Assembly: GCA_030704615.1 (NCBI GenBank) | Contig: CM060731.1 | Coordinates: forward strand, 124,001-188,000 | DNA: 64,000 nucleotides | Direction: 5' to 3' | Origin: Takakia lepidozioides | Taxonomy: Eukaryota > Plantae > Bryophyta | In this document: positions 17,410 to 53,194 of the stretch, piece by piece | How positions within the stretch are numbered: position 1 is the first letter of the stretch | Layout of the letters: each line of letters opens with the position of its first letter | Program-made: the position numbers and the translations under genes | Notes under the pieces: generated by a model | The model's input: only the letters and a program-made list of their open reading frames with translations | What the model was told of the DNA's origin: nothing | Database searches by the model: none

Positions 17410-17692
17410 CTAGTGGCCATGAAAACTAGGGTCTCCATTAGCATGGCCTCCATGTCTCAAGTGAGGCTCGACACCTCATTTGACATGTGAGACCAAATGA
17501 AGTCCCAACACACAAAATATAAATATAAATATCTAAAATGTCATAAGTTAACTAGAAGTAGGTAATACTAGATAAAGTGACTAAAACCATGAGAGCTTGC
17601 GGCACCTAAGCATCGTGCCACAACATACATCGCTGTCCACCACACAATCTAAGCACATGATCCTAGAAAGCTATACCACAATTGCCCCCCTA
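17410..17692 (-). mobile_element. PPT and truncated 3' LTR of the DNMT-carrying gypsy element
   Basis: On the minus strand, AGGGGGGCAAT (17691-17681) is immediately followed by TGTGGTATAG. The sequence is continuous with the PHD end of pol once the CACTA insertion and its TSD are removed. 17451-17592 is closely similar to 34861-35010. Confidence 0.65.
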
Positions 17693-20084: not shown

Positions 20085-20490
20085 AAGACACGCACATCCT
20101 TGGGGCAAAACAAATCTTGGCAGTAGGGCCAGACTGTTTCTAAAAGGTAGTCTGAATCGGGCCCCTCACTGACATTGCCAGTGACATCAAACGACAATGG
20201 ATGGACCATGTTCAAAGGGGAGTTCCCCCTCCCCTTGTGTGGTGAATCATCCACTAGGAGGGTGTTGGATTCGTTAAATCCAGAAAATTCCGACCACACC
20301 CTCGACAGTCTCTTCTGTAAGTTCTGTACGGCAGGCCCTTTTGTGGGGTGTGGCTCTGTCAAGGGGTCACACTCCTCTTGTGACCACACAAAGAGGGGAG
20401 AACCCTTGACCCCCTGCATGACCACTTTGAAGATGTCTGCAACATTCCCCTTGGAAGCACAGGACCATATCCCAACGTAGAAATACCCTG
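20085..20490 (-). pseudogene. FCP1/NIF (HAD-family CTD-phosphatase-like) domain, 5'-truncated, inside the CACTA
   Basis: FYVGIWSCAS...PLFVWSQEECD...KRLSRVWSEFSGFNESNTLLVDDSPHKGRGNSPLNMVHPLSF...DSDYLL is the NIF signature. The N-terminal DxDxT motif is missing because of the junction at ~20490. Confidence 0.8.
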
Positions 20491-20512
20491 GGAGGACATT
20501 TGGCATTTCAGA

Positions 20513-22429
20513 ACCTCTTGCAGCGGTACCTCCTGGACCCCATGCATTGTAAGAAGAACTTCTGCGAGAACATTCTGAAGACTATCTTTGGGGAGAAGGA
20601 TATGATAAACGTACGAAAGGACATGGAGATTGAAGGGATACGGTCACATCTGTGGCTAACGCCTGATCCAAATAGACCAGGCAAAGTGCTCATGCCAGCA
20701 GCATCATACGTCCTGACCAAATCAGAGCAAGAGGATTTTTTGAAGACATTGGGAGCCATGAAAGTGCCAACCGGATTCTCGGGTGCTTTCCAAAAGCATG
20801 CCATAAACAAGAAATGGTCGGGGATGAAGTCACATGATCTACACGTGATGATGCAACAGATTTTGCCAGTGTGCATTCGGGGTACAATGGCGCCAGGTCC
20901 TCGAACAGCCATAATGCGTGTAAGTCGAGTGTTTAGGAAGATTTGTGCGAAGGTTGTGGGATCCGAGGGACATTACATCGTTGCATGAGGATGTGGCTAT
21001 GACCCTATGTTTGCTGGAGAAAGAATTCCCTCCATCATTCTTTGACGTCATGATGCACTTGCTAGTGCATCTTGTAGAGGAGTTGCATGTGTGTGGGCCC
21101 GTAGCCAGCCGGTGGATGTACCCCATGGAGAGGTACATGAAGGATCTAAAGGGGTATGTACGCAACATGGCACGGCCAGAGGGGAGTATGGCGGAGGGCT
21201 ACATCCGTGACGAAGCCCTGGGCTTCATGACAGAGTATATGTCTTCATTTGATGCATACAACGACGGGTGTGGGACGAGAACGAGGAAGAAGGAGTTGTA
21301 GGCGAGGTCCTAGAAGGTGGTGGAACAAAGCGTGTCATGAGCCCGCGCCTTCGGGATGTGGCACATGATTATGTGCTGAACAACACAACAACCATGACAC
21401 CATGGAGACAGTGGGTGCCAACTTACATCCCTCATGTGTTATTCTTAATGGTCTTTGTATGCTGGAATTACATATATATTGTCACAAGTCATTCCGGCCA
21501 CTATGGGAGTGGGATCGTGTACTAACAGGGTGCTTCAGACGACTATAGAGGGTGTTTCGTAGATCTTGGTTGTTGCTTGCAAGTGATTATGAAGTAGGCT
21601 GCATCACTACAGTGTGCTTGAAAGGACACACACTCTGCATGTGGCATGCATGTACAGCACGGTGTTGGTCAGGGGGACTGAGTTGCAGCTTCTATTTGGT
21701 TTCTGCCAGAAAGTACGCAGCGGAGAAGGTCTGCCTGAAAACGGAACGGAGTGCATTTGCAAAAGCATGGCGGAGGGGCGGTCGTAGGCGCAGATCCCCG
21801 GTGGAGTACCCCACAACAATGGAGGAGCTGCAGCCCTTTACAGTGTGGGTCAGATCTGCAATTGCAGTGTACGCATCAGAGAACGAGGACCCAGATGAGG
21901 GCATGGTGAGTCTGTCATTCCCCCCAGGGCTGATTGCCACTTCGTACCGGTCAATGAAAGCATATGGCAATCACTATAGAGTGGATGATGCCAACACCAG
22001 CCTCCTGGTGACTTATGACAGCGGAGTGGCATCATTTTTGAACAAGAGAGTAGGAGCTGTGCACGAGATCAGAATCCAATTTCATGCCATGTGCAATATG
22101 TAGGAGTGATCAAAGAGATCCTTAAACTAGACTATGGTCTTGTGAAGCCAATTCCATTCCGTTGTTCTTGGGTAAAAGCCAATATGGTAGGAGAGAATGC
22201 CACCATGAAACGGGATGAGTACGGGTTCTTCCTTGCTGATTTCAGAAAAATGCTACCACAAGATGAAGAGCCATTCATCTTCCCATCGCAAGTTGAGCAA
22301 GTTTTCTTTTCAGATGACACCCATGCGCCGGGATGGAAGGTGGTTCTTCACAAGGACCCCTGGGCCAAACGAGTCGTGGCCGACGTCCATGATCTGGACC
22401 TAGGGAGAATGCCGACCACGAGGGTCTGA
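20513..22429 (+). pseudogene. C-terminal half of CACTA TnpD transposase (DUF4218/DUF4216-type regions), frameshifted, with introns
   Basis: LLDPMHCKKNFCENIL, GMKSHDLHVMMQQILPV, LEKEFPPSFFDVMMHLLVHLVEE..CGPVASRWMYPMERYMKDLKGYVRNMARPEGSMAEGY, YVGVIKEILKLDY..FRCSWV, EPFIFPSQVEQVFFSDD..GWKVV. Confidence 0.92.
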
Positions 22430-23418
22430 GGGAACCACGAAATCTACCAGATACGGCCGAACCAGTCTCTTTGGAAGGAGCAGTTACCTTTAATGAGGAA
22501 GACATTCCAGGGTTGGTAATTACCACAAGGCAAATTGCAGATGTGGGTAGTGAAGGGGAAGATTATTTGGATATAGATAGTGAGCCCAGCTGAATCTCAG
22601 TGTCCAATAAGCCAGCAGCTCATAGACGAGAGCTATGCTAAGGACTCTTACTGTCCTTAGAACCCATTTTGTACAGTCCTGCAAGCGCGCAAGGGCGAGA
22701 CAGTTAATAGTATCGATAATGTCCCGGTATGTGGTCCGTACTGTCTTGTGAACAAACCTTTTTTTGTTTTGCCAATATTGTTTCTGACATGTGAGGAGAG
22801 GATCGTCTTCATGTACGGGAAGTAGACGTGAATGTGTGCATGCATTTTCTGGCCCAGCTGCATGCTTTCCAGGAACAAAGACCAGTGGAATGGGGGGTGT
22901 CTCCAAAGGAGCAGGACCGAACGACACCTTTTTGTGCTTCCCTTGCTTTCCTTCTCACCGTTGTTGCATTCTCCCACCTGCCCAATAGCAGCACTCTCGA
23001 AGCAATAGCATGACATATGTTGCAACATGGTCTTCTTCACCAGCGAATGAGCTTTTTTGCTACATGTATTGCCACGTCCACATTAACGTTGATCCCTGCA
23101 AGCACTTGGCAAGACACCCTAGAGCCGCAAATCCAGCAACCACCACAAACACATCTAACTGATTGTAGTGACACGGGAATAGCTCACTTGTACAGGAAGT
23201 GAACCTCCAGCCAAATGAATGGCTCTGCCCCTTGTAGCACAAGTGCGATGCAAAAACAAGGTGAGTACAAAATGAAGAAGCACTTACGAGGTCCCCATCC
23301 CTCGGATGGGCTCCCACTTGTGCTCTGGAACTGTGCAGGCCTGACTAGCACCAAATTGCATGAATCCTAAGCCTGAATGTCAAATGCAGGTTTATGTCGC
23401 GATGCAGCACGCCATCAT

Positions 23419-24290
23419 CTAACCTGTAGTTTCCAGTTTCACTGGTGTCACAACTGCCTTCAAGTCAACATCAAAATTAAGTCCACCTATGCGCAAATTG
23501 CAGAATGTCTCATGACACCATCTGCCGCCGCTGGTTGGCATGATATGATTGTAGTTCACAACCTTAATGAACGCTTTCAGCCTTGACCTCTTTGCGATCT
23601 TCTTCTGTGACTGCTTCTTCATAATTTATGAAAGGGAAAAGCAGCTACACATCAAATTCTTGCAAGTACAGGGGGGTACTCAGGCCTCCTTGGGAGAAAG
23701 AGTGCCATAAACACAGACACATCCTTAAATGTAAAAATTGGAGAAGCGAACGTCTGGTGGCAATAACTGCCTAAACCAGAATTATACTCCATTCCAGCGC
23801 ACATGTAAAAGGTCGGATGATAACTCGGAATCCCAGTTGGAGATAATGAGACGAATACATGACTATCTTGCGAGTTTCAACTTTCTTGGAGGTAGTTTCC
23901 AGTTTCTCTGGTGTCACAACTGCCTTCAAGCTGGGTTTAGAGGAATTAAGTCCCACTCGCAAATGCAGAATGTCTTCCTCATCTGCGTGGGCAAAATGGG
24001 GTTTGGCATGATATGATTGTAGTTCACAACCAAAGGGCATATTCTTCAGCCTTGACGTCTTTGCGATCTTCTTCTGTGATGCTTTCTGCATAACTTGTGA
24101 AATGGAAAAGCAGCTACACATCAAATTATTGCGATGCCACTCAATGGCACTATGAACGTTTCGAGCATGCTGTCAGAAAACTAGACGGGCAAAAACCCAA
24201 TTCAGCAGCCTCACCTTGCGTGGATACTTGGGAATTGATGTCAGAAGGGCATGCCCGTATGCGCGCTCCATCGTGCCTCCATCCAGCACA
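23419..24290 (-). pseudogene. RPL27: Two tandem captured fragments of 60S ribosomal protein L27 (eL27) inside the CACTA
   Basis: Copy A: DGGTMERAYGHALLTSIPKYPRK (24290-24212), [25 protein letters not shown] (24097-24005), LKAVVTPEKLETTSKKVETRK (23930-23865). Copy B: [30 protein letters not shown] and [17 protein letters not shown] (23622-23425). Confidence 0.85.
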
Positions 24291-24950
24291 TTCTGTAAAT
24301 GATGAATGACCAAGACCCCGATGTCACACCGTTCTGAGAAGCCACTACGCGCGCTCACAGTATACGAAGGCCTTGCCGTGTCAGGATTTCCATTCCCACG
24401 TCCCGCCATGTCCGACGCAGCACTTGCATCCTTGTCTCTGCCAGGTGGAGGCAGCACGTATTAAAATATCTATTCCCCCAAGGCAACATTTTGTTTACCT
24501 CTTTTTGTGAAAGCCATGTCAGCAAATGTGCTGCCGAGTCATGGGTGCAATGAATGCACAGTGGTTCATGGAGTCGTTGAGTCGACTACATATTCACTTT
24601 AATGAATAAATATCTTTATTCCATTAATCGAATTAGGAAAGAAAAATTGTAGTCGCATGTGCAGTAATTACAACCACTTGTAATTTTGGCTTTTTCAAAT
24701 TTTATGTATTTACGCAATTCGTAAAATAGCTCGGAATTCTGCTACGACTCCGGAGTCGTTGACCCCATTTCTGTCCGTCGTCTGAAATGCCCCCGTGGGC
24801 CCACATTGTCTGTTTTGACTCTGCAGTAGTCCCGTTTACTACCAAGTGGTTCCCGGAGTGGTCGCGGACATGCAGTCGAATCGGAAAAGACACGAATGCT
24901 TCTAGTGCCTTGCATTTCTTGTTAGCCTTCCATGGTTGTATCCACTCCCA

Positions 24951-25097
24951 CTATCCAATGCAATGCGGACATAACCAATCCCCATCAGGAACCATCTCAA
25001 GAAGTGGAGTCAAGCATCACATATGCCAACCTCTAGAGCATTGATCACACACCAGCATGGTGGCTTCCCCTCTAGCAGACCCACACAACATGCACCT
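24951..25097 (-). pseudogene. PHD finger (C4HC3) at the C-terminus of the gypsy integrase
   Basis: One frame reads CMLCGSARGEATMLVCDQCSRGWHM*CLTPLLEMVPDGDWLCPHCIG*, with a single internal TGA. Confidence 0.88.
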
Positions 25098-26370
25098 CAA
25101 ACTTGCAGGTACCACTGCCAGGTTTGGGTCAACCCTTCCATCAACATTTGGAAGGTGACATGGCGCGCAATTACGCACATGGTCCTTCCAAATCATGCCA
25201 TCCCGACCCTCAAAGATCAGGACTCCTGAGGGCAACACCTCTCGAACCCTCAAAATAGTACATCCTGCAGTCACATCCAAGGTCGTAGGAACAATCTGCT
25301 GCAGATAAACATAGTCACCAGGATTAAATCTCCGAACCCCAGGACGATAGCCCCCACCACGTATGATAGCATACCTCAACGTATCACGATATTGTGCAAT
25401 GGCAAGGTTCTCGAAAGCCATGGGCATGACTTTCTTGAACAACTCTGCACGCTGATCACATGCACGTGCCCATGTCCGGATCGTCAAGGTTGAGAACTGT
25501 AGCAGCTTCTCTACGAATGGATGCATGCAAATCCGGCTCTCGGCCAAAGAGAAGAAAATATGGTGAGAAGGAGGCAAGTGATGGCTTGCTGAACATGTAG
25601 CCCATGGCTAACCAAGGTAACTGAAGGTCCCAATCTCCTAGGTGTCCCTTCTGCAAGCCATACTTGCGCAAACCCCTCTTCACTGTCTGAACAACCCTCT
25701 CTGCCAAGCCATCTGCCTCAGGATGATCCCAAGAAGTGGTGCGGTGGTCTACCAAGGCCTTGTCACACAATGCCTGAAACTCCCCCAAGAACTCTCTCCC
25801 TTGGTCCGTGAGTACCTCAGCTGGAGCACCGAATCGGCTAAGTACACAATCCAAGAATGCATACGCAGCTCCCTCACTAGCCTTATCAGGCAATGGAACC
25901 AACTCGATCCATTTGGAGAAGTGCTCCACCATCACCAACACGTACTTGTTGTGGCGCATGGTCAGTGGCAACGGCCCTGCGAAGTCAAGACTCCACCTGT
26001 AGCCCAATCCCATGATCGAAAGAGGGTGCAATTGTGGAGTAGGGGCGTTGAATGAAGCACGCACCCTGTCACATACCATGCACCTAGCCACAAATTGTTG
26101 CACCTTTGTGTGCATACCACGCCACCAATACTGCCCCTGCAGTAGACTATGAGTGCGTCGCACCCAAAAATGCCCCAACTCCTCATGGGCATGCCGCACT
26201 AACCGTGCCCGCTGTGTTGGGTGAGGCACAATCCTCACTCGACCTTCCTCCCACACTCGGAGCAGGTGTATCCCCTCCCACTTGAACCTCTTGGCTCGTT
26301 GTAGGATCCGATCCCTCTCTTTGGCAGTCACAGTGGCTGTCGTGTCTCCAGTGCAGAGGTAGTCCAACAC
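25098..26370 (-). pseudogene. Ty3/gypsy integrase (HHCC zinc finger + DDE core), frameshifted
   Basis: HEELGH...YWWRGM...CMVC, WSLDFAGPLP, LVMVEHFSKW, FGAPAEVLTDQGREF, HPEADGLAERVVQTVK, SPYFLLFGREP. Confidence 0.93.
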
Positions 26371-26453
26371 AGCTGAATCCTCATGTATATCTTTGGCACC
26401 ACCTTACTCATTGTTGGCCTCAGGGTCCTCAGACACTCGGTCTACAGTCATCC

Positions 26454-27944
26454 CTATTGTAGGTCCAACCTGGCCTTCCGTTGCCAAGATACACAGAAAT
26501 GCCATCCGGGCACCATCTCCTCGTCTGTCTCACCATGCCACCGAGCTCCAGTATCATCCTGCTGGCTCGTGCATAGATTGCGACTCAACCCATCTACATC
26601 CCGATTGACCAAACCCGGTCGATGCACAACCTGAAAGTCATACTCTTGAAGGATGAGTGCCCACCGTGCAAGCTTCCCCGTAATCTTGTCTGACTCTATC
26701 AACCATTTGAGTGGTTGGTGATCCGTCACAAGGGTGAAGAGATTGCCGTATAGATAGCACCTGAAGTGTGCCACGGCCCACACTGCAGCTAAGCATTCTC
26801 CCTCATATGAGCTATACTTAGACTCTGCAGCGTTGTTCGAGCGGCTAGCATAAGCCACTACGAACTCTCTTCCCTCATCATCCACCTGTGTGAGCACCGC
26901 TCCAAGCCCCAGCATGCTCCAATCTGTATGCAGCTGAAAAGGAAGCCCCCTGATAGGTCGTCTCAAGATGGGCGCCGAGGTCAACCTCGCCTTGAGCTCT
27001 TGAAAAGCTTGTTCTTGCTCATCTTCCCACTGCCACTCCTGGTCCACCTTGGTCAGTTTGGTTAGAGCCTTTGCAATGGTACTAAATCCCTTAACAAACC
27101 GTCTATAATAGTTTGCTAACCCCATAAAAGCTCGAACTCGGCTCACATCCGTGGGGCGTGGAATTTGTGCAATGGACTCTACCTTAGTCTGCTGTACCCC
27201 CAATCTTCCAGGATATATCATGTGACCCAGATACTCAATTTGGTTGTGGAAAAACTTGCACTTCCCCGGATGTAACTTCAATCCGTGCGCCCTCAAGCGC
27301 TCAAATATCACCTAAAGGTGTCTCTCATGCTCCTCCACCATAGCACTAAAGATGATGATGTCATCTATGTAGCACCGAGCAAACTCCACCCCTACTAGAA
27401 TCTTGTCCATGACTCTCTGAAACTCTGCCGGAGCGTTCTTAAGCCCTAATGGTAAGAACCGCCACTGGTATAGGCCATCCTTCCCATGCTCATTGATCCC
27501 CCAGAATGTCGTCTTTTGCTTATCCGCCTCCTTGATTGGCAACTGGTGATATCCGGATCGTAAATCCAAAGTACTAAAGACCTTGGCATGCCCAATGGCA
27601 TCAAAGATCTCCTCTAGTGTCGGCATGGCATACCTATCGGACTTGGTCTAATGATTTACAAGCCAGTAATCACCGCACATACGTCTCTCCGTCCAATTGC
27701 CATAGACATCCTTCTTGGCTGGCATCACTCTGGCTGAAGCATATTCTCTCCCAGATAGCTCCACCAAACCAGCCTCCCAAAGGTCCTGAGTTCTCATCTG
27801 AATCAAGGACCTCTCCATGTCATTGTATCTATAGGGTCTCCGAAAGATTGGCGTGTTAGTAGCCAATTCAATGCGAATCTCTTGACCCTTCAGCGCTCCT
27901 AAGTCTTTCAAATTGAAGGCAAAGCAGTTCCTGTAAGCCCTCAA
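26454..27944 (-). pseudogene. Ty3/gypsy reverse transcriptase + RNase H (one frame, nonsense codons at 27648 and 27312)
   Basis: [100 protein letters not shown]. Confidence 0.95.
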
Positions 27945-28385
27945 GAACTGCCGTATACATCGTCTTTCTCCTCCGGTGACTATAGGTCCAACATCAGGCT
28001 CCCAGTTGTCCTCCGTGACTGCAACCTCGAGTCCAGCAGACTTAGAGGTAGAAGACGCGTCCCGTGGTTGCTATGCTGCAACCTCTTTAGCAATGACCAC
28101 TACCTCCTCTGTCAGTGACAATGTCTCATCCTGCCCCATCATCCCATCCTTGAGGACCTCCTCAACCCGAGAAAAATCCCCAACCTCATCCATCACGGCC
28201 GCCTTGGCTGCCAACTCTTTTTGAACCTCGAGCACCTCCCACGTGTGCCATGGATGCAGCCTGCACCTCGTAGTCCTCACCTGTTCGTCCCTACTTGCTG
28301 CCTGTACCGTCTCGGTAGGCAGGGAGACCATCAAGGGAAGTGTACTCCGTACTCTGCGCTGCTCAGCCATAGCCAAGCTGATAAT

Positions 28386-29330
28386 TCAGGTCAAGCAATT
28401 GAGATCCATTGCTTGCCCCAACACCTGACGACGTGATGCCTCAGAAAGAGATGGCACCGCCGTGGTACTAGTGATGAAACCCATTGCCCGCTCGTGCTCG
28501 TCAGCATTGGGCTCCACTAACTGCTGCAATTGGCTATCCCACAAGAGGCCAGGTGCACCATCCCGAAAAGTATGAGATCCTGGAAAGCTGAGCAGAGTAG
28601 GCAATGATGCTCGTGGGTGACCCACCTTATTGACCACTGCCAAAGGTGATCGGTCATCGTGTCTCACACGCTGAGACTGCCTCCCTATGTCCAAAATGCT
28701 ATCCACCGTCAGGTTTGGTGGCCGTTGCACCCTATCAAATGCATGTTTGAGCAATGCAGGTGGCATCAAGTTGGTCCACCATAGTCGTGGGCGATGAGCC
28801 CGTGACCCCACTGCAGCTGCATCCAACAACACTGCTGACCCAAGCCAAGACCGCATTTGATGTACATTGGCCATCACCTTGGCCCGAGAATCACCCATCA
28901 ATGGCACATTCTCCAAGATATATGTCGGAGAGTCTGTCTGCTGAAGCTGTAAATAGCGCAGGACCCTCAACATCTCCCAAAACAGGCGTGACCTTGAGTC
29001 TTGTAACCCTTTGCCATACCCAGCTGATGAAACCCCTTGGCAGGGCCAACCTGCCACTACTAAGTGAATAGGGCCAACCCGCTCCAAATCATGCGCCCCC
29101 AGCAAGGAGATGTCTGCTGGCAAGGCTTGTTGGTACCCACGAACTGCAGACACTGGCAACAAATCAGGGTACTGCTGCATCAACTGAGCAACATGGCGCA
29201 GTGAGATGAGTCGTGCAGTCTCATCCTTCTCCACATATAGGTAACGTCGAACTCGTACGGCTGCCTGCAGCACTGCAGCCAATCTAGTGCTAATCCCGCC
29301 AAACAAGTCCAGAAGACATATGCCTTCATC
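28386..29330 (-). pseudogene. DNMT3-like C5-cytosine DNA methyltransferase domain embedded in gypsy pol between protease and RT
   Basis: Ordered C5-MTase motifs: I LDLFGGI, II YLYVEKD, III ADI, IV LVVAGWPCQG, V SRLFWEM, VI YILENV, VIII AHRPRLWWTN, IX ERAMGF, X RRQVLGQAMD. Same reading frame as the protease upstream and the RT downstream. Confidence 0.93.
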
Positions 29331-29717
29331 CGGGCACTGCCACACAAGAGGTGTGGTGTCCAATGGTGACAACTGAGGTGGTCCTGGTGCAATCACCGCA
29401 CTCTCCTCCTCTCTTGATGGTACAAAGGCCTCTACCCAGGCTTGTTGCACCCGTTTATCAGCAGCCTGCTGCAAATCCTTGCTCGTACCCCACAATGGAG
29501 TGTGAGCAACCATGGCAGACAACTCCGCCGTACCATGCATGTCATCCTGCTCTGCTGGAGGTGGCACATCCTCTGCATGGGCATTGCCCTCCAGCAACTC
29601 TCCAGGCCAACTAACTGCAGCAGTGAAGGCTGCTAGTGTTGGCATCTTGCCCCGTTAGGCAGCAGCAACACCCCCCAAGAACGTCACAGGGAGCTGTACA
29701 CGACGACCATCCCCTGA

Positions 29718-30160
29718 CTACCATCCAGGCCTGTAGGATGCTGACTCCTCCCAAAAATCCAGGGTGGAGCCCATGGGATACAACACTGCCCCACCAACGA
29801 GAACATCGTAAAATACCGCGTCTGTCACAATGGCATTGGCTCGCATCACTGAGCCATCTATAAGATGATCCGGCTGTGGTCTAATGGCCAACTCACGTCG
29901 TGTCATGCCCCGAGCCTGCTCTGATCCTCCCAGAGATGTATGTATCTGGAAGGGACAAGGCTCCATATCCGCCTCCATGAGGCCCAAATCTGCAATAACG
30001 GCTTTGCCCAACATCAGTGGCTGAGCTCCCGAGTCCAACAAGACCCGCAGTGGCCGGTACTTCTTGCCTGCCGGTCCACTCAAAGAGAAAATGCCATCCT
30101 GATTGTCTAACAAGACAACTCCAGGTGTCACCATGGCGCGCTCAAAGGCTGTCGTAGCTG
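29718..30160 (-). pseudogene. Retroviral-type aspartic protease of the gypsy element
   Basis: RVLLDSGAQPLMLG catalytic motif and YDVLVGGAVL C-terminal motif. Confidence 0.88.
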
Positions 30161-32247
30161 GCAGCTGCAGCTTGCCATGGCGCAGCCGTGGCAGTCTTGA
30201 CCCTCAAATCTGAGGATCCCTCTGCCACTACACCTTCCACTAACTTCGCAGAAGATGAAGTGACCTCCCCACTCTCACAAAGTGTTGCTGCTAGTCTGAA
30301 CACTACAGCTAGTCTTATCCCCGGCATCGCAATCATGGTTGCCGAGAATAGTGGGGCCTGACACACAGAGGTGGCCGCCCCCAACAACACACTGGCTACA
30401 CTAGCCTTGGCAGCAGGTATCAGTGCTGCACGTGTAGCTCTTCCCAATGGCACAATAACCTCCGCCTCGGTATCCGTGGGGCGAGAATTAGGTGCCATGG
30501 ATGTCGTCGACACTGTCTCCGCCAAGATGAATGATTGAGACAACCTAGCGTGACGGCTTGTCTCCCCACATTGTGAATCCAACTCCACCTCTGCACCTCG
30601 TGGCTCAGGAACTCGTGTTGCTCCTCGAGTGATGGCTGCAGCAGACTCCACCTGCACTAGTGGTAATGCTGCCCCACACATAAATCCCATGTCTCCCATG
30701 TCTCCTCCGTCAGGATGACGCTGCTGAGGAGGAACAGGAGGTGGACCCTCAGGTTTTGGAGCTGGTACCACCTGAGCTGTGGCCATGGCAGCGAACCTTT
30801 GCTCTAACTGCTGAAGCCGGTTGGCCATACCTTGGTCAACGCCCTGACCTCCACGTCCTTGGCCATACTGTGCTTGCCCTTGTCATGCACCTTGTGCCTG
30901 AGCACCTCGTCCTCTCTGAGGCACTCCACCTCGCCCTCGGCCACCATTGTTCCCTTGGAACTGGCCTCGCCGCAACTCAGGGTGCAAGTCATAACATTGG
31001 GCATCTCCATGCCCATACTTGCCACAATGCCCACACTGCAACTGTGTAGGCTGTGCTTGTGCCGGCCCTTTGCCACTTTCTGGGCAATCTTTCTTGACAT
31101 GGGGTCCTCCACATGTCCAATATACCACCCCTGGTTGCTGTTGGCCTGCAAAAGAAGCTACTGGCCTCTGCACCTGAGGTCCCTTATAAGCTCCATGGAA
31201 TTTGGGTTGGGCAACCTTGCCCCCCTGACCACGCTGTTGGGCAGTCCCTTGTACTTGTTGGCTGGCAGCTGCGCCTCGTGCAGGCATGTCCTTGCCAAAT
31301 CCAATGGTAACAACTCGCTCTTTCACCATGTTGAGCTCAATCCGCTCAGCCAGCAAAAACACATCTGCTAATGTGGGTTGGGCCGCTTGTAACAGGGTTG
31401 CATCCCACACCCTTCTCCTGAGCTCCTTGTCCAAAATTCCATACCAGAACTGGACTGCCTGAGCTTCAGTAACCCCTTGGGTCACACTTATCAAGCGCCT
31501 TATACAAGTGTAGGCCTCTCGCAAGCTCTCACTGGATTTGCGCTGGAAGTCTTGCAAACTTCGCAGCTTCTCTGTCCGTACACCTTGGTTGTTCTTCCGC
31601 AACTCCTGGAAGAACTCCACCACCGGGTTGAATCTAGGCACATGTGTTGTAGTCGTGGCAGGAGGAGTAGTAGCACCTTTTGTACTGGTACCACCTGCAG
31701 AAGTACCGGCACTACTTGTTCCACTACTAGTGCTTGTAGTTGGAGATGTTTGTGTAGCTGCTGGTGTCACCGCTGCCCTTGTGCCTCTAGTGATTGAGAC
31801 ATAGTTAGGTGACCAATACTCTCGCCACTCCTCAATCTCCACCGCATGTCCCTGCCTAAATTCATGGTAATCATCCATGGAAGGCCCCTCAAGGTGCTGG
31901 AATAGCCCATTCCACGCCATAAAGGGCGTAAACAGTTGTGGATTGCGCATTTGCTGCAAATCACACCAACTGTCAAACTCTTGTATAAAGTCATCAAGCT
32001 CGATGGTGCCCATAACTCTAGAGTACCTACGTGGCCCCTTGGTAGCTCCATACATCTCCTCCATCGTGTCCCACAACAATGGCACGGAAATGACTTGCAC
32101 CCTCGGCGAGAATCCTCCTGACTCCGAGTCTGAACCTTCCTCAGAAGACACTGAAGGTGAAAGTGGCCTAAACCACACACCTCGTCTTGTGTACCCACTA
32201 GTATCGCTGGTGCTCGTACCAGCACTCCCCTCAGCAGCTGGTGGCAC
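30142..32247 (-). pseudogene. Gag of the gypsy element (capsid-like region + two zinc knuckles), one in-frame stop at 30883
   Basis: LRSLQDFQRKSSESLREAYTCIRRL...QAVQFWYGILDKELRRRV (MHR-like), knuckles WTCGGPHVKKDC and CGHCGKYGHGDAQC. The 30142-30828 ORF continues in the same frame. Confidence 0.85.
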
Positions 32248-32904
32248 CTCCGTGATGAAAACTCACAACCCAACCGGTTGTCAACCTGTCTCTAATCCCC
32301 ACTTTCTACAAGGTAACCGGGTAGAGAACCTGTTGCGGCTACTGGTTCAAGCAGGAATAATAGGTTTCTAACGTAGACCTATACTTGCACCTGCATCCAC
32401 CGCAAGCACTCATATGGTCTGCTGGTCATCAACCCAACCTCACCATAGAAGAAACACTGGTGGTCTTGCTGGTCATCACTCCAGCCTCACCACCGACAGC
32501 ATACTCTAGGATTGGCCGGTGATTAAATCCGGACCAACCTCCTATGAAAACAAGCGCCCACACAAAGCTAACATGGCGCACAGTCAAGCATGCAGGTGTG
32601 GAGGGGATCCAAACACAAGAAAATCAAGACAGCAACTCCCCCACACCAAAAACACTCCACAGTGTCGCTCCTGCAAGGACACCCCAGCCCAAACCCGGAC
32701 TGACTCTTGCCTCCACCTACGGAAAGGTTTTGGCCTACAAAAAGGGTGAAAGACTATGGAGAAGAGAAACTAAAGCAATTCCTAACCCCATAATGCTCTC
32801 ATCCCACCACTCTCCCTCATGTCTCTATCCACTCGCTTGTATGGCCGTGGCAAGTATCCTTCAATATCCCTCAATCAATCCTTCAAGAGCTCTTCAACAT
32901 TATC

Positions 32905-33040
32905 CACCAAAGCTCCTCGAAGGGTCCTCCAAGGACCCCAAAGATCCTCCAAACACTCCTCCAAGGACCCCAAGATCCTCCAAATACTCCTCCAAGGCCC
33001 TCAAATATCTTCCAAACAATCCTCCAAAGGCCCTTAAATT
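32905..33040. repeat. Tandem repeat, ~31-bp unit (CTCCTCCAAGGACCCCAAGATCCTCCAAA.A), ~4 copies
   Basis: Directly visible repeated units. Confidence 0.8.
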
Positions 33041-33059
33041 TCACTAAGTCCTTTCACTG

Positions 33060-33273
33060 TTGATACCTTAACAAAGGTATAGTCTGAAGTTGTTAGGGTC
33101 CCTTATGTTGATGATACCTTTACAGAGGTATAGTCTGAAAATGAGGGTTCTGTTTGGTATACTAACAGAGGTATAGTCTGAGCTGATTAGGATCCACATA
33201 TGGTGATACCTCAACAGAGGTATAGTAAAAGGGACAAGCTCCTGTTTGGTATACTAACAGAGGTATAGTCTGA
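33060..33273. repeat. Five ~26-bp repeats (GATACCT.AACAGAGGTATAGTCTGA) spaced ~45-51 bp apart
   Basis: Units at ~33062, 33113, 33158, 33204, 33249. Three units carry a perfect ATACCT/AGGTAT stem; the other two have ATACT. Confidence 0.85.
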
Positions 33274-35902
33274 GCATACACTACTACGGTTTGTAATGAA
33301 GAGCTAGAATGCAAGTCCTTGACTTCTATGCTTCTACTCAAGCAAAAATATGGTCTCTAGGTGGTCATAAGAGACATCTTCTTGCTCTCTTCCACCCCAA
33401 TGTGCAACCAAGAGTGGTCCAACTCAACTTGCAAGTCATTGTCCACCAAATCAATCCCCCTTCTAGTCCTTGGGATTTGATTGCAAATTACCATATCTCC
33501 ATTGCCGAGCAATCATGCATTTGTCTCCTCATCACTTGACAATTGCTCCAAATCAACACAAATTATCTCAATGTGTAGGAGCAATGCTTGTCACTTACAA
33601 TAATGCTCCCAAGCAATCCGCCTTGGATCCCGCTCTCACGCCATATGCCTCATTTGGGGTCTTGCACCAATCCATCATCCATGTGCTCCCCGTGGTCATT
33701 TGAATGCATGTTCCATGACCTCTTGGCCTATGTGTTGCTCTCCTTCATTATAACATGAATCAACACCTCTCCACTTCACACACAAATGGATCTCAAAGGC
33801 CTTCATCTCTTGCTAGTTCAAGAGCTCCCATTCTCAAACTTGAACTTACAAACTCAAGCAAGCATGCTCCACACATGCACCACTTGTTTGGTCAACTATC
33901 CACCACAAAGCTCGCACTACCAAGAGCATGAATAGCCAAGTATTGTCTCCCCCTCTTGTCACATTACATAGTTAGGGTGAAGCTATGCATACATTGAATG
34001 ATGATTTCCCTTCAAGGATTTCCCACCACATGTTCTCCAAGCCCTTCCAATGGCATCCTAAGCTTGGCTCCACACCACCATGATTGGAAGATTTCTTCAC
34101 ATGCTCCCTTTCAAAACCTCTTGAGCTTCTTAGTGCTCTCCAAGTGCTTGCCCTTGTTGTCTTCAAGCCCAAGCATATATAGCTCATTGGCTTCTCTTCC
34201 ATAACATCCACACTTTGAACTTGCTTAACCCTAGCTTGATAGTGAAATGAGCACTAACAAGTCTTTAGTCACTCTCCACAAGCCATGGTGCACACCATCG
34301 ACTCCATAATGCATACAAAGGATTCTCAAACCCTAGAATCCATGCTTCCACACACACAAGACTTCCTCCTTACAATCCTTGCAAAATCTTGTGACTCAAG
34401 AGCTTTCTTCTCAAGCTCTCCAACTCCTTGGTGCATGCAATACTCGAGCACTTTTCCTTGCAACCCCTTGCAAGCCTTGTGATACAAGAGCTAAATTCTC
34501 CTAGCTCTCAACCTCTTTAAAATACAAGTGCAAAACTAATCCTTACACTCCACACTCACAAGCATAATGTGATCTTCTTGTAGTGATAAGAGATGAGAAA
34601 TGAGAGAAGTAGAAGACAATGAAAGCTCTCAAAGCATGAAGCAATCACATGAAGAACAAGCCCTAGTCCTTCCAAGTGAAATCCACTCTATCACATAAAC
34701 TAAGTCAAGCCAAGGGCACCTTTGTTAAAGGAATCCACCCTACAAAGCCCTCAACACACTCCCTCTCAATACCTAGAGCTATGGAGGTGAGAGAAGCTCA
34801 TGGAGGCTCAACTACAAGAAGATGAGCATCCTCAACACTCATAATGGGAAAACCTATCTCCATGTCTCAAGTGAGGCTCGACACCTCACTTGGCATGTGA
34901 GACCAAATGAAGTCCCAACACACAAAATATAAATATAAATATAAATATCTAAAATGTCCTAGTTAACTAGAAGTAGGTAATTCTAGATAACCATGACTAA
35001 AACCATGACATTCTATTATCAAGAATCTAGGTGCAAACTTAGCACTCTTCTACGAGCATCAGGGATGCCTCGGCGTGAGCGCAGCAGTGCTCACGCCACG
35101 TCACCTTGAGCGAACGCCACGTCACCGGGCTCACTCCACGTCATCGAGCTTAAACGCCACGTCAACACGCGCCAAGTAAGAAGCAGGGTGTATTTCCGCG
35201 GAAGAGCACCCTCAACCGCGGAAACAAGTTGGACGAAATAATAAAAGGACGTGGTCATCCCCACCTGAAAACAACAGTTGAACGCAAAATGGATGAATGT
35301 AGAATGGATGAGAAATATATGGATGTGTGGGAACAATGCAAGCAAATGGATGAATGTGGGATGGATGTTGAATAATGGAAAACATTCTTGAATGGAGGAT
35401 GCATGAATACACAATAGATGAATGCACAATGGATATGACATGAGTGTGAGGGGTTTGTGGAATGGATTCATGAAGATTGACATTTGAATCCGAGTAGATT
35501 GTTTGATACATTTTCTTTTCTGCCGGAACAACTGCAATGAGGCAAGGGAATTCAATCATTTCCGAATAGGATATAAATAGAACATTAAAAATGCGAAGTT
35601 CAGTCTGACTCAGAGTCAGTATAATGTATCCCCGCGTCCTCTGCATCCAAGTCCAAGAATTTAAGAACTCCGGATCTACGATGGCTACTCCTGCGATTGG
35701 GCAATAAGAAGTCAGGGGATAGAGCATCGGCCATTTGAAGTGTCATTGCTTCGGCATAGACAAGAAGCACAAAAGTAGAAAGGGGACTGTAAAAAACAGT
35801 CTCGGCACAAATGGGGGTTTCTCCTGAAGATCCATCGTTGCCGTTCCTGCAAGCATGATAAAAGTTAATACTGCAAACTGGAATGACAATTCCATGGCCG
35901 AC

Positions 35903-37830
35903 TTACTCACATGAAAAGTCGTTGTCGATCTGCTTATCCTCGGTATCCTCATCATTTCTGATTTGAATTTGTTCAGTCTGTGTGCCAAATGTAGAGCCAG
36001 ACACAAGAGGGAGGAGGACACTCTTGAATAGTTCGGTGTCGCCCTCCATGCCAAAAAGGCTTCTCCCGCCAACCTTGCAAGCACGGTAAGTCGCACCTGC
36101 CAAGACAAAAAGCCTCAAGAAGGTTGTAGAGGATGCAAAATCGGATGCAAACTGGAAGACCTTGAAAATGGGAACAATATTGAACCAACGAACCTGTGGA
36201 TAGTGTGAGGTCGACCACCCTTGCAGAATGGTGGCTGCATGACTCCAAGAGTGTCTGCATGAACGCTAGGGTTCTCTCCCTTGCACCTCTCCATGGAAAC
36301 CCATCTGGTCTTTTGGTTGTCTGACTGGAGTGCATGAAATTGTAGAGCATGTCATCCACATGCGGTTCATATGGGGGGTTGATGAAACACCCCTGGTCGG
36401 AAATTCAAAGCTGCGAACGGAGGATGGTGTTTTGGAGGTGCGAATCCTCCTTAGGCAGATTGCCTCAAACATCCTTGTCTGGCAAAGATGCAAGGTAGGG
36501 GTGAGACATGGAAATATGAAAGGAATTATGGCGCAGGAAGGAACAGAACATGGACTGCAAATGAAAACTACAATGGAATGTATTTGTGATGATCGGTGCC
36601 GATCATCACAGATGGTGGTAGAGCAAGCCAGCAGAAACAACTGAAAAGACATTGGGAAACAATTCAGAGGAGGGCGGTGCCATACCAGCTGTCCAGGGCA
36701 ACCACCTTTCAGAAGGTACAGGATGTTCACACAATTCCATGTCCTCAGAATTTCAAACCCAGACGACTTCAGGTATGATGCCAGTCCCCTACGACTATCC
36801 TTGTCACATGACTGGGAGAGCAAAAGCGTTCCTGCATCTGAAAGGAAATTATTGCAGAACCCGAATACCCAACTCCAGTAGTTCTCATCGAATCTATTCC
36901 AGGATGGAGTCTTTCCCTTTGGAGGAACGTCGGGGACAGGTCGGCCGTCTGGGATGTCAAGGATGACCATGTCAGCGGCAAAGGTTTTTTGAACACCGCA
37001 TACGAATGAGGGACCAGTGCTCACCTGCAGCATACATGTACAATTTAAATACAAACAAAAATGAGGGTCCCAACAGAAACCAACATCTACATTGGCATTG
37101 ACAATTTCGAAAGTCCCATGTGAAGAGAAAGATTCTTACCATATTAAGAAATGAAATCATGTTATCCCAAGTCGGTGATGGCACCCCCGAGTAACCTTTT
37201 CTCCGAGTCTCCATCATCGCCATCCATCCCTCATTCACAATCTTGATCTGCTCTGCCAAGTCCGCACGGGAATGGTGTGGCTTGGCATCGAAAACGCATT
37301 CAATAGTGCGGGTGTACCTCCCAGCTGTCTCATCTTTCTCCTTGTCCTTGTCCTTGTCCTTCTCTTTCTCCTTTTCCTTCTCTTTCTTGTTCCCTTTCTC
37401 CTTCCCCTTCTCCTTCTCCTTGGACTTCTCTTTCTCCTTAGTCTTCCCAGGTGACTTGGCTACTAACTCCGGAGCCTTTGGATCTTTCACCTTGCGACCC
37501 CCCTTCCTGCCTTTCTGTGGAGTTATCTGCGCGTCTGGCTCATTGGCGGCCAATGAAGCTATGTTCCTCTGGTACTCTTCGTCGTTCAAAGGTGCCAGCG
37601 TCTCCGCATGGTTGTTCATATACTTATATGCTGCTCTTGAAATGTCGTGTGCTCTGGAGGGCAGTCGAGGTACCATCCACAGTCCCTGAAGTGGGCAGGA
37701 CTCCAATCCCTGAAGATACCAGCTGTGTACATGGTGGGATCGTTGGTAGGGTCGGACCACATGTCCAGGTAATCTGGGATTCCACTCAGGTGTTTTCCTT
37801 CCATCAGCACATATTTAGTGTACTTGCGGA
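35903..37830 (-). pseudogene. Intron-containing beta-class amino-(N6-adenine/N4-cytosine) DNA methyltransferase-like gene. Exons ~37830-37140, 37024-36686, 36478-36194, 36096-35903; two frameshifts
   Basis: Three GT-AG introns join in correct phase. Motif order is beta-class: ADMVILDIPDG (motif IV position), WNRFDENYWSWVFGFCNNFLSDAGTLLL, PWRGARERTLAFMQTLLESCSHHSARVVDLTLSTG|ATYRACKVGGRSLFGMEGDTELF (motifs X-I-II). A K/E-rich linker lies upstream. Confidence 0.72.
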
Positions 37831-39369: not shown

Positions 39370-39510
39370 AACTCAGAGCGGGAAGCCTACCTTTGGACGG
39401 AAAACAGATGCAGAGAGGAAACGGGATTGCAAATGTGTGTTATATGCGCATCCTGAAGATAATACTCACTTTTTGATTCGTTGTCCTGGGTACGCTCACC
39501 ATAGAGACTT
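39370..39510 (+). mobile_element. Short LINE fragment (CCHC region), same family as 6400-6877
   Basis: AACTCAGAGCGGGAAGCCTACCTTTGGACGGAAAACAGATGCAGAGAGGAAA...CCTGAAGATAATACTCACTTTTTGATTCGTTGTCCT. Two small reverse copies also lie at ~41690-41810. Confidence 0.7.
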
Positions 39511-39519
39511 ACTGACTGT

Positions 39520-41470
39520 TCTCTCTCTTATGTTACAGGTGCCTAATTCCAGCTCAAGACAGGTGAAATTTATCTACTACAAGGTGGAGTTTTTTGTAGA
39601 GTTTCTTTAGACTGGCCTCAGCGAATTCGGGAAAAAAACCCATCATTGTTGTGTTCATCGTTAGGGTGGAATACCAGTCAGCAACAAGGTCTCCATTTCT
39701 CCACTTTCTGCATTCTTGGTATGTACTCGTTCTTGATAGGGCTTTGCATTGGTAGGTGGGCTCTGCTGCCCTGTAGTGACTAACTATGAGCTGGATTTTT
39801 TCAGGTCACCGTTTTCGCACTACAGTAGTCTATGTCCCCTTGTGTGGCCTGATAAAAGTTTTTATGCTAGAGCTAAAGTATGACGCCTCCCGAAGGGAGC
39901 GTAACTTATGGTGTCACTTCACCACACGGGCTACTGCTAGAGCTATATTAACAACAAAGTGAGTCCAAGGAACATGTAGACCCTACTCTTGGCTTCAACT
40001 ACTTGTGCTGAAAAGAAACAGACAGGAATGACCGTTGAAGCTTATGAAAAGTAATCATGTGTATTGCCTATGTGCAGTTTGAGAAGTGGAGTTGGATCCA
40101 GAGGTATGGCTATTTGTGTTTATGCAACTACCGAGGGTTAAGTTGGCATAGGGAAGTGAAGGGGAGGTTTTTGGGGTTGGAAATGGACTTGTTTGTAACG
40201 TGGACAACTTCTATGGGTCCTACAATTTTCTGTCTTGTTGGTGCAATTGTAAGATTGCACACACCAACTGCAGCTTTTCAATTTGGCCTATTATCTTGAA
40301 GCTGATCCAGTGAGGTGGGACCTACTAGGAGAGGCACAGTCAGTTCATTGAGTTGTTTGCCAATAACTGATTCTGAGCAGGGTTTAGGATTTCAGATAAG
40401 GTTAAAGAGAAGTAGAAGGGCATATATCACCATGCTTGAACTTTTTGAACTGTGTCATTCCATTCTTTAGTAGACTCCTCACTGTTAGGCCTGAATCACA
40501 TGTAAGGTTGTAGGGTTTTTTTCTCACATTGTCTCTTATGGTTGCAGGTGCCTAATTCCAGCTAGCATTGTTAGGGTGGATTACCAGTTAGCAACAAGGG
40601 CTCTTTCTGCATTCTTGGTATGTACTCGTTCTTGATAGGGCTTTGCATTGGTAGGTGGGCTCTGCTGCCCTGTAGTGACTAATTATGAGCTGGATTTTTT
40701 CAGGTCACCGTTTTCGCACTACAGTAGTCTATGTCCCCTTGTGTGGCCTGATAAAAGCTTTTATGGTAGAGCTAAAACAACAAAGTGAGTCCAAGAAACA
40801 TGTAGACCCTGCTCTTGGCTTCAACTACTTGTGCTGGAAAGAAACAGACATGAATGACAGTTGAAGCTGATGAAAAGTTATCACGTGTGTTGACTATATG
40901 CATTTTGAAGATTTCCTGAACAAGCGGTGGAGTTGGATCCAGAGGTATGGCTCCCTCTGATTGGACATCTTGTAGCAAAGCGAGTGGTTGGGCTCTTGAC
41001 TGTGATGTTGTGTCTGCACTTGCTGAGTCTACCTCTGTCCACCTCATATTTGTGTTTATGCAAGTACTGAGGGTTAAGTTAGCATAGGGAACTGATGGGG
41101 AGGTTTTTGGGGTTGGAAATGAATTTGTTTGTAACATGGACAACTTTTTGGGTCCTACAAATTTCTGTCTTGTTGGTGCAATTGTAAGACCACACACACC
41201 AACTGCAGCTTTTCAAATTTGGCTTTTATTATCTCAAGCTGATCCAGTTAGGTGGGACCTACTAGGAGTTGAGGCACAGTCAATTCAGTGAGTTGTTTGC
41301 CAATGATTGGTTCTCCGCATGGTTTTGGATTTCAAATAAGGGTAAAGAGAAGTTGAAGGGCCTATATCGACATGCTTGAATTTTTTGAACTGTGTCATGT
41401 TCCATTCTGCAGAAGACCCCTCACTGTTAGGCCTGCAAGTTCATTACATGAAATAGTGGATCACATGTAA
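39520..41470 (+). repeat. Tandem duplication of a ~0.9-1.0 kb non-coding unit rich in splice-like sites
   Basis: CAGGTGCCTAATTCCAGCT (39536, 40546), CTTTGCATTGGTAGGTGGGCTCTGCTGCCCTGTAGTGACT (39742, 40641), CACTGTTAGGCCTG (40480, 41422). The same unit recurs at 53520-55270. Confidence 0.88.
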
Positions 41471-41886
41471 GTGAAATAGGGAATCACCTGTTCAGGAGTT
41501 GATTTATTGCCTGAAGAGGTTTTTTTAACCTTTGGCTGTTCAGGGTGAGTTTTGCACCCCCCCCTAAAGCTCCCGACGAGATGAATAGGTCCGACAGTGG
41601 GGTAAGCTGCAATGTATGACCAATAGCAGATATATCCTAAGTTAATCGCCTCTATATCTTGTATGTAGTACATCAGGCAATCACAATTTCCTCTTCCTCT
41701 CTGCATCTGCTTACTAATCAAAGGTAGGCTTCCCGTCTTGAGTTGTCTGTAGTTACAATCTCCTCTTCCCCTCTGCATCTGTTTAATGTTCTAGGGTAGG
41801 CTTCCTGTCTTACTTAGTGCTCTGTCTGCAGTGATTGCAGGGTATCCACGCCACCATTCGAGATAGAAAAAATTGATCATGCAAAC

Positions 41887-52082: not shown

Positions 52083-52159
52083 CGGTGGGCTCTCGTTGCA
52101 AACATTGGTGACACTTAACTCCCATGGAATCCTTCCACAATATTGAAGGGTACCACCCT

Positions 52160-52464
52160 GGCATACATGTCAATGACGGTGTTGCTCAGATTGTCATTTG
52201 GTAAAATTCCAGCCCTCTTGATGTCATCATAGACCTGCCTTCCCTCTTTAAGAGATTCAGGGCTGGTGTACGCCTTGCAAATGGAAGTGATCGTGACATG
52301 GGCGGGCTTAATAGCCTCCCACATCAACTGCCCATCCATCTCCAGAGCCTGAATTTCACAACCATGCTGGGCATTTCTTGCAATCATCACATTTGATGAC
52401 ATCACATCTCGTTCAGCCGTGTTGATGAACACTCCCTTTGCATTCTTGATACCCCCACACTTGG
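52160..52464 (-). pseudogene. PLS-class pentatricopeptide repeat (PPR) fragment
   Basis: KCGGIKNAKGVFINTAERDVMSSNVMIARNAQHGCEIQALEM...IKPAHVTITSICKAYTSPESLKEGRQVYDDIKRAGILPNDNLSNTVIDMYAR follows the S-P-L motif consensus. Confidence 0.85.
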
Positions 52465-53194
52465 TGAATGCCACCACTGCGCATTTACTGACATTGGCCT
52501 CTAGCCCCCAAAGATCAAAGTATCTCTTTGCGCAATCTATCAGCCCCTGGAGGTTGGAAGGAGTCTCCCCTATGCCTGCGGAGTCATCCAAAAATGTAAG
52601 GGCTGGTATGGTGGCATCACCCACCCTTAATCCAAATCCCTCACTTTCCACATCCTCCAGTAGTTCATTGATGAAAACATTGAAGAGCAGAGGGGAGAGG
52701 GTACATCCTTGAGCTACACCTTGGTCTATGTCAAAGAAATTAGATTTCAGTCCATTGACCGTCTCTCCATACAGTGTCATAGGCCTTTTTGACATCCAGG
52801 AAAAAGACAAAAGTAGGTTTCCCTTCTTTTTCCTTCCTTGTATAATCTGGCTGAGTGTGAAGATATGATCCACGTAGCCCCTGTTCGGCCGAAAGCCAGC
52901 TTGGCCTTCATGGAAACAACCTCTGGACTCCAGATCAACCTCGAGACGAGTACTTATAATTCTGCAGAATATCTTGCCAACTGCATTAAGAAGCGTGATG
53001 CCCCGATAGTTACCCGGCTCTTCTCTGTCACATTTCTTATAAAAATTGACAATGACCCCTTGCCGCCAGCGAAAGGGGGTAATTTCAGTCCTCCATATAA
53101 GGTTAAAGAGAAGAACAAGGGCCTCTATCATAGGGTCACCACCACGCTTGATAAGCTCATTGACAATGCCATCAGGGCCACCAGATGTATCCAT
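52465..53194 (-). pseudogene. LINE (RTE-like) reverse transcriptase fragment with an internal deletion
   Basis: SGGPDGI, GVIVNFYKKCDREEPGNYRGITLLNAVGKIF, EGQAGFRPNRGYVDHIFTL, QGVAQGCTLSPLLFNVFI, TFLDD, LEANVSKC. Confidence 0.9.

Follow-up and report, generated by a model that had tools for sequence, protein, structure and literature searches.

We have identified a decayed Ty3/gypsy-type retrotransposon that encodes a DNMT3-type cytosine methyltransferase (methylase) in Takakia lepidozioides (Bryophyta). It lies in a 64,000-nucleotide stretch of the assembly GCA_030704615.1 (contig CM060731.1, positions 124,001 to 188,000 of the forward strand), which was analysed as a whole and is referred to as the window. 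Comparison with its relatives suggests, almost with certainty, that a conserved stop codon downstream of the methylase ends a first open reading frame (ORF1) comprising gag, protease and methylase, and that reverse transcriptase (RT), RNase H, integrase and a PHD finger constitute a second one (ORF2). The stop is probably leaky, i.e. read through. The parts of the element are as follows, in window coordinates.

24907..32852, minus strand: retrotransposon copy of the DNMT3-bearing Ty3/gypsy type, decayed and 3'-truncated
30145..32262, minus strand: gag and gag-protease linker, start of ORF1 (stop at 30883-30885, frame break near 30160)
30994..31122, minus strand: two zinc knuckles, the first without its first Cys (compared with P0001 and P0003; coordinates counted by hand)
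29835..30056, minus strand: aspartyl protease (PF13975, E = 6.6e-4; PF13650, E = 0.004; both below the curated cut-off)
28389..29333, minus strand: DNMT3-type C5 cytosine methyltransferase, unpermuted (PF00145, E = 5.8e-11)
29045-29040, minus strand: catalytic Pro-Cys of the methylase
28386-28388, minus strand: stop cutting the region of the last methylase helix
28065..28073, minus strand: TAG (28073-28071) followed by CAA CCA, end of ORF1, in a CAR-YYA readthrough context
27150..27950, minus strand: RT (PF00078, E = 2e-19), both catalytic Asp kept, stops at 27648 and 27312
26560..26999, minus strand: RNase H (PF17917, E = 1e-35)
25470..26250, minus strand: integrase, zinc-binding part and core (PF17921, E = 1e-14; PF00665, E = 1e-13)
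24954..25094, minus strand: PHD finger at the integrase end, eight of eight zinc ligands present, stop at 25017-25019 inside

The Ty3/gypsy order of gag, protease, RT, RNase H and integrase is thus present, and Pfam matches together with the reading of the frames bear out the order gag-protease-methylase-RT-RNase H-integrase-PHD that an earlier note on this DNA had proposed. That note had placed protease to RNase H in one frame interrupted by six stops, and exactly these six are found; indels that other copies do not share have shifted gag, integrase and the integrase tail into other frames. It had also regarded all six as point mutations, which does not hold for the stop at 28071-28073, a conserved feature of the family.

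The argument for a conserved stop is carried by an intact relative and by the ends of intact proteins. In locus L028, whose methylase is 51% identical to that of the window, two ORFs of 1162+ and 1047 codons share a frame and are separated by one TAG, the sole stop in the coding run, which is followed by CAA TCA. Both this junction and that of the window match the CAR-YYA consensus in 6/6 letters, a context that by itself directs readthrough in tobacco mosaic virus (PMC2194720). None of the eight other listed stops of the window copy stands in such a context, which by simple arithmetic would follow a random stop about once in 500 cases. At the same site six independent Sphagnum-like insertions have TAG (three), TAA (two) or GAG (one), so that the stop is kept at one place in five of six, and CAA CCC follows in all of them. 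The proportion of synonymous differences (pS) between these insertions and the window copy is 0.66-0.84 in gag, methylase, RT, RNase H and integrase, and the methylase-RT linkers cannot be aligned as DNA.

On the protein level gag, protease and methylase form a single continuous ORF in intact relatives, and many relatives are gag-protease-methylase proteins of 1250-1440 residues lacking RT. Their C-termini lie 98 residues past motif X in seven Marchantia proteins and 100 in four of the Calypogeia type, and in other families, on different contigs, 104, 116, 120, 131-138 or 162-164 residues past it. Separate RT-RNase H-integrase-PHD proteins of ~1010-1080 residues occur in matching families, some of them starting at Val instead of Met. 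A tree of RT-RNase H sequences unites the split elements, which range from Coleochaete to Marchantia, in a single group of 22 rows (SH-aLRT 99).

That the stop at 28071 reflects ordinary decay, the methylase being a normal pol domain, is very improbable. Decay would fit the window copy, with its seven or more further internal stops, and the deamination hot spots that yield shared stops in dead copies. Against this, the stop at this site is the only internal one in the intact L028, no copy shows a codon for Gln or Trp that decay could have turned into this stop, and dozens of intact ORF1 proteins terminate at this very point. Position 28071 is not among the 40 of 1387 host-copy differences that are listed, which decides nothing on the stop in the host's copies. 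The proposal that the methylase is an integral pol domain rather than a later insertion therefore needs to be divided: the domain is old and integral, with hundreds of relatives and the same order in independent loci, but the conserved stop separates it from RT.

Several observations weigh against a conserved, leaky stop. P0442, a member of the split group, and locus L006 have no stop, the Sphagnum-like context fits only 5/6 consensus letters, and junction DNA comes from three subfamilies only. In the Sphagnum-like copies 19 of 75 stop positions are common to more than one copy; as shared stops are frequent in these dead copies, they lend weak support, leaving the argument to L028 and the intact protein ends. 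The Klebsormidium, Closterium and chlorophyte relatives have a single continuous ORF, implying that the lineage does not require a methylase at the level of Gag. Finally, an in-frame stop does not guarantee readthrough, as the gag-pol stop of Tca2, likewise in frame, showed none in a reporter (PMC2194720).

If the stop is conserved, pol might still be expressed by splicing, from an internal promoter or by reinitiation, the methylase remaining at Gag level; we regard this as unlikely. Ogre elements have an intron at the GAG-PROT/pol boundary, the Sphagnum-like copies have an in-frame ATG three codons past the stop, and two Marchantia gene models (P0005 and P0012, predictions only) skip the junction region. 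Moreover, Tca2 has a minor promoter at the junction and no measurable readthrough (PMC2194720), and some plant long terminal repeat (LTR) groups have GAG-PROT in a first ORF (PMC6317226). These routes are opposed by L028, in which the ORFs abut in frame with no non-coding spacer, and by the six letters after the stop, which fit the readthrough consensus in two distant subfamilies. They are further opposed by the lack of an ATG beside the stop in the window and L028, and by the several ORF2 proteins that start at Val. One contig, from a run guessed to be RNA, crosses 26283-28448 without a skip and gives no evidence on splicing or expression. A stable RNA structure 3' of the stop was unsupported in six sequences (z from -1.59 to +1.36). 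Readthrough remains the reading we prefer.

We then considered the methylase itself. In sequence comparisons with solved structures DNMT3A was the best match (E = 4e-12), far ahead of M.HhaI (2e-4) and DRM2 (0.07). A structure model based on a 35-row alignment reached a predicted local distance difference test score (pLDDT) of 91.7, and all listed fold matches of this model were DNMT3A/B/C chains (best E = 1e-20, template modelling scores 0.73/0.81), with an identity to DNMT3A/B of only 21-24%. The profile match and the predicted fold agree with the DNMT3-like identity first suggested for the domain. The catalytic motifs had been described as intact, which is correct for motif IV (Pro-Cys), motif VI (Glu-Asn-Val) and motif VIII (Arg-x-Arg); motif I, however, has Arg in place of the Gly carried by 60 of 70 relatives, and His stands at a site where 69 of 74 relatives have Arg, so that the window methylase is damaged. 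Across the family rows the catalytic residues are nearly invariant (Cys in 72/73, Glu in 77/77, the second Arg in 72/76), which makes long-term constraint on the methylase clear at the level of sequence.

Recent constraint is less readily judged. Between the window copy and seven related copies, with synonymous sites near saturation, the ratio of nonsynonymous to synonymous differences (pN/pS) was 0.28-0.47 for the methylase, close to the 0.25-0.39 of RT, and 0.16-0.17 for RNase H, 0.17-0.29 for integrase, 0.39-0.58 for protease and 0.47-0.52 for PHD. Among the decayed Sphagnum-like copies the pooled ratio of substitution rates (dN/dS) was 0.75 for the methylase versus 0.47 for RT, with 0.36 for RNase H, 0.62 for integrase and 0.99 for PHD. 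The objections that the earlier note had named (neutrality of the methylase relative to RT, family copies without the domain, no match to C5 methylase profiles) do not overturn its proposal: family copies do carry the domain, and it does match the C5 methylase profile, in line with an old and integral methylase. With their high pooled dN/dS and recurring stops the Sphagnum-like copies alone do not prove selection, and recent constraint on their methylase is not clear. Codon 54 of the methylase is a stop in five of six of these copies (L002, L005, L006, L011 and L018), caused either by a deamination hot spot or by spread of a subfamily with a dead methylase.

With its fold preserved, the domain might serve the particle by binding nucleic acid or modifying RNA instead of methylating DNA, which appears quite unlikely to us. 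The low identity to DNMT3A/B would be in accordance with such a role, as would position 250, mostly Tyr or Phe in the family, which was aligned by eye to the loop Arg of DNMT3A that we take to read CpG. The domain of Klebsormidium was inactive in yeast (PMC5890265), which counts in the same direction, but human DNMT3B likewise failed in that test (PMC5890265). Further points against a non-methylase role are the full-length match of the predicted fold to DNMT3-DNA complexes and the catalytic Cys, Glu and Arg, which hardly vary although the family has diverged very deeply.

Among 49 representatives that extend into the integrase tail, 42 have the PHD finger behind the integrase, which supports the arrangement first proposed. 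Pfam detected it with E = 0.0024, using only the half before the stop at 25017; with this stop read as X the whole finger matched solved PHD fingers with E-values down to 1e-14. The best matches were CHD4, ATXR5, PHD1 of KDM5B/KDM5A, DPF2/3, BAZ2A/B, PHF21A, UHRF1 and AIRE, all of which we take to be readers of unmodified histone H3 tails. Relatives from Scenedesmus, Haematococcus and Klebsormidium also have a PHD finger, and the combination of a methylation writer with a histone reader is therefore not special to a land plant. The parallel that had been drawn with the reader-plus-methylase design of host DNMT3 is loose, since the finger is fused to the integrase in ORF2, so that the bulk of the methylase would be synthesised without a reader. 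The finger's likeliest role is that of an integration guide, comparable to a chromodomain, and not that of a reader serving the methylase. Membership in the chromoviruses is not supported, as PHD is followed by a stop and no chromodomain was present in the 11 window pieces or the 14 relatives scanned. In the chlorophyte-type proteins P0043, P0050 and P0056 conserved-looking segments without Pfam match lie past the PHD finger, one of them Tudor-like by eye.

From the observed domains, fold, family and conserved stop with its context we infer readthrough, an excess of methylase over RT and integrase, packaging, a cDNA substrate and a PHD specificity, which together could work as follows. Most ribosomes would halt after the methylase, giving Gag-protease-methylase in bulk, and the few passing the stop would produce RT and the PHD-bearing integrase. 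The protease would release the methylase inside the particle, where complementary DNA (cDNA) is the obvious substrate and newly made cDNA is likely to become methylated. Pre-methylated cDNA might then resemble heterochromatin of the host on arrival, or escape the sensing, cutting or editing of DNA by the cell. The PHD finger would probably guide the integrase to nucleosomes whose H3 tail is unmodified and, by analogy to chromoviruses, might keep insertions off active promoters with methylated H3K4. For this chain as a whole, from split ORFs and low-rate readthrough to a packaged methylase at Gag level, cDNA methylation and targeting by PHD, we consider the odds slightly favourable. Evidence to the contrary comes from yeast, in which no methylation by the isolated Klebsormidium domain was seen; the authors of that experiment regard the outcome as inconclusive (PMC5890265).

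Alternatively, the methylase could act in self-restraint or for the host, an abundant free enzyme methylating the element's own loci or other repeats and thereby limiting transposition. Self-restraint has been raised as a possibility (PMC5890265), synthesis at Gag level would yield far more methylase than one cDNA needs, and the window copy has drifted from G/C to A/T as expected of a methylated repeat. Host enzymes account for this decay equally well, the methylase is joined to Gag and protease and thus placed for packaging, and its persistence in chlorophytes, charophytes and bryophytes accords with an advantage for the element, so that we judge this alternative improbable and retain cDNA methylation as the working model. 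More tentatively, and with considerable doubt, the model may be extended to elements of bryophytes and related streptophytes in general: a leaky stop would load particles with active DNMT3, cDNA would be methylated before integration and the PHD-integrase would aim at chromatin unmethylated at H3K4. A switch to recoding would then have made a bulk constituent of the particle out of what had been one passenger per pol. Such elements, perhaps without ordinary LTRs, could on their derepression introduce de novo methylation into the genomes of bryophytes.

The window copy is dead, having acquired stops and frameshifts and lost its 3' end, yet it is a member of a repeated family. We placed contigs of four public sequencing runs on positions 21000-36000, where contig depth between ~24.9 and ~32.9 kb was ~10-50 times that of the flanks, depth not being equal to copy number. 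In run X5 the depth was 516-823 over the methylase bins versus ~30 in the left flank, in run X1 474,000-673,000 versus 14,000-38,000. Loose contig ends are heaped at 24907 in runs X1 and X8, indicating that the window copy is cut there, whereas the 5' end probably lies at 32852, judging by the step in depth and by the first 13 letters, which resemble the starts of related elements. The element thus extends on the minus strand from ~32852 down to the cut-off point at ~24907, beyond the limits first given (24951..32247), within which the domain coordinates hold. A second copy is represented by one 5009-bp contig that spans 24907-29630 unbroken with 287 differences and carries, in succession, methylase, RT, RNase H, integrase and PHD.

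In all four runs the frame breaks in the integrase near 26498 and 25470 are indels missing from other copies, and the stop at 27648 is likewise private to it. Compared with the family in run X1 it has A/T replacing G/C at 421 of 858 listed places and the reverse at 196, the bias expected of a methylated repeat. Its gag region had no match in a Pfam search and is 55-72% identical to Marchantia gag regions; two zinc knuckles are present, as the earlier note had stated, although the first is incomplete. The protease is 37-58% identical to those of relatives. No LTRs were found in or around the window, in which the 3' end of the copy is lost.

Searches with the methylase returned 62 longer proteins and 240 of similar length, and 234 matches with E <= 1e-30 among representatives clustered at 50% identity. 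Named relatives come from Marchantia polymorpha, M. paleacea, Calypogeia fissa, Riccia sorocarpa, three Sphagnum species and Klebsormidium nitens; a search with RT-RNase H added Coleochaete, Closterium, Tetraselmis and Haematococcus, and a cluster look-up Scenedesmus. By sequence the nearest named relatives are bryophytes (Marchantia, Calypogeia, Riccia and Sphagnum), with charophytes and chlorophytes more distant, in agreement with the bryophyte-like setting first proposed. No named vascular plant was among the matches listed (62, the best 120 of 240 and the best 120 of 219), most of which are nameless. A viral collection yielded no relative with P0022, and an alignment query gave just weak phage-type methylases.

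Among 27 metagenome loci those of low GC content have the domain order of the window and those of high GC content have the methylase between RNase H and integrase; both end in PHD. The latter arrangement defines a chlorophyte-type group (L007-L015, L020, L022, L023, P0272 from Scenedesmus and P0534 from Haematococcus). In 138 new representatives at 50% identity the methylase follows RNase H in 74 and precedes RT in 14, the other 50 being too short, and it precedes RT also in P0533 from Tetraselmis. As the elements with the methylase after RNase H form one RT clade, the domain moved once within the polyprotein.

In a methylase tree of 85 rows, rooted on four bacterial-like methylases, the protease-methylase-RT elements including the window and P0053 of K. 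nitens fall into one clade of 59 rows (SH-aLRT 99), within which 49 rows (SH-aLRT 96) hold the families whose ORF stops after the methylase. In the RT tree the window and P0053 share a group of 48 rows (SH-aLRT 92), most of them elements with a methylase or a PHD finger; the two are not sisters, and P0053 sits on a long branch. Both large trees are quick IQ-TREE runs without bootstrap, drawn with midpoint rooting and comprising no host DNMT3, REM1, Phygy or Chlamyvir references.

The ends of relatives vary. The distant L013/L014 have an 825-bp LTR following a purine tract. Two Sphagnum-like elements (L005:4845-14177 and L011:5750-15443, ends approximate) have TG...CA ends and 4-bp target duplications and no LTR pair, the first ~165 bp of L003 are repeated at its 3' end until another repeat cuts in, and L028 is circular, its 3' end being joined to its 5' start across two letters. 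The ends of L003, L005, L011 and L028 could reflect either collapsed split direct repeats or replication without LTRs; they are compatible with split repeats and are not proof of them. Neither a purine tract nor a 4-bp target duplication, both found in relatives, is visible in the truncated window copy, and no primer site was recognised. Membership in Phygy of REXdb is not supported, because the duplications of two relatives are not NCGN and Phygy is defined by NCGN, a tRNA-Trp primer site and no extra domain (PMC6317226). L028, titled uncultured Synechococcales cyanobacterium, and P0168, from an Obscuribacterales metagenome-assembled genome, are plant-type elements in bacterial metagenome bins, most likely eukaryotic contamination.

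In the remainder of the window we recognised no host genes. An imperfect tandem repeat of ~42 bp in four copies lies just upstream of the element (33060-33290), and a separate repeat at 33129-35010 has near-identical copies in another run, its part 34858-34942 recurring at 17448-17532. Other decayed mobile DNA (20431-22430, 45742-46851, 52115-53218 and 61450-63868) comprises pieces of a CACTA-like transposase, two pieces of a LINE-like RT (by eye) and an unrelated gypsy element. At 39370-41805 two ~900-bp units within imperfect inverted repeats are probably a non-autonomous DNA transposon.

Why retrotransposons carry an enzyme that normally silences them has been a standing question since 2018, and the sole green-lineage example until now was an alga whose domain is inactive in yeast. 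The conserved stop offers a clue concerning dosage, as one branch appears to raise methylase output over RT and integrase. Members whose gag-protease-methylase ORF is complete occur in the genetic model Marchantia polymorpha, which makes the question testable, and methylation mutants with derepressed transposons are available in this species (bioRxiv 10.1101/363937). Caution is advised with DNMT3 counts in bryophyte gene catalogues, which include retrotransposon pieces. Transposon methylases have been stated to be absent from land plants such as tracheophytes (Morozov et al. 2019, PMC6338049), contrary to their presence in bryophytes. Streptophyte retrotransposon DNMT3s have been mentioned with no land plants named in the text available (PMC12344493; bioRxiv 10.64898/2026.05.21.726589), and the available parts of PMC11982613 and PMC12885004 add nothing on land-plant Gypsy-Dnmt3. 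In a literature search that did not reach most subscription papers, figures and bioRxiv supplements we met no account of a land-plant Gypsy-Dnmt3 element or of this stop, which does not establish that none has been published. Placement of the methylase at Gag level by a conserved and probably leaky stop, in a Gypsy-Dnmt3 branch related to bryophytes, is probably new; the pairing of reader and writer is a plausible idea whose outline is already known.

Host DNMT3 (animal DNMT3A, bryophyte DNMT3) shares catalytic fold and motif order with the window methylase, but the element has no ADD, PWWP or introns, and its reader is on a separate protein product. We know of no methylase in REM1 of Chlamydomonas. 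Like REM1 and the chromoviruses the element has a histone reader at the integrase C-terminus, and PHD fingers on retrotransposons are already known (PMC6673714); chromoviruses differ in having a chromodomain, which was not seen in the window family. The main text of the REXdb paper, as far as available, mentions neither methyltransferase nor PHD (PMC6317226). Murine leukaemia virus (MuLV) gag-pol and SIRE1 pol-env likewise have an in-frame stop between retroelement ORFs, and the CAR-YYA context resembles that of tobacco mosaic virus readthrough (PMC2194720); MuLV has a downstream pseudoknot, whereas here the stop follows gag-protease-methylase and no stable downstream structure was found. DAM-LTRs/EpiLTRs are Ty3/gypsy elements that also join a DNA methylase and a chromatin reader, but combine an adenine or DNMT4-related cytosine methylase with a chromodomain, and the preprint sets them apart from streptophyte Gypsy-DNMT3 (bioRxiv 10.64898/2026.05.21.726589). 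SymbioDIRS-Dnmt3 has a retrotransposon DNMT3 domain that, in contrast to that of Klebsormidium, methylated CG de novo in yeast; it is a dinoflagellate DIRS element, an independent capture without DDE integrase (PMC5890265). Closest is KnitGypsy-Dnmt3 of K. nitens, with an unpermuted DNMT3-type domain between protease and RT (P0053), Ka/Ks below 0.2 and DIRS-like repeats (Fig. 4c legend; PMC5890265). The available text of that paper mentions neither PHD nor Marchantia; its Fig. 4c may show a PHD, and the K. nitens protein P0527 carries one. On sequence grounds the window element is a branch of the KnitGypsy-Dnmt3 lineage, differing in that Klebsormidium-like proteins continue into RT, whereas the window branch, which occurs in bryophytes, has its methylase in ORF1 by virtue of the conserved stop.

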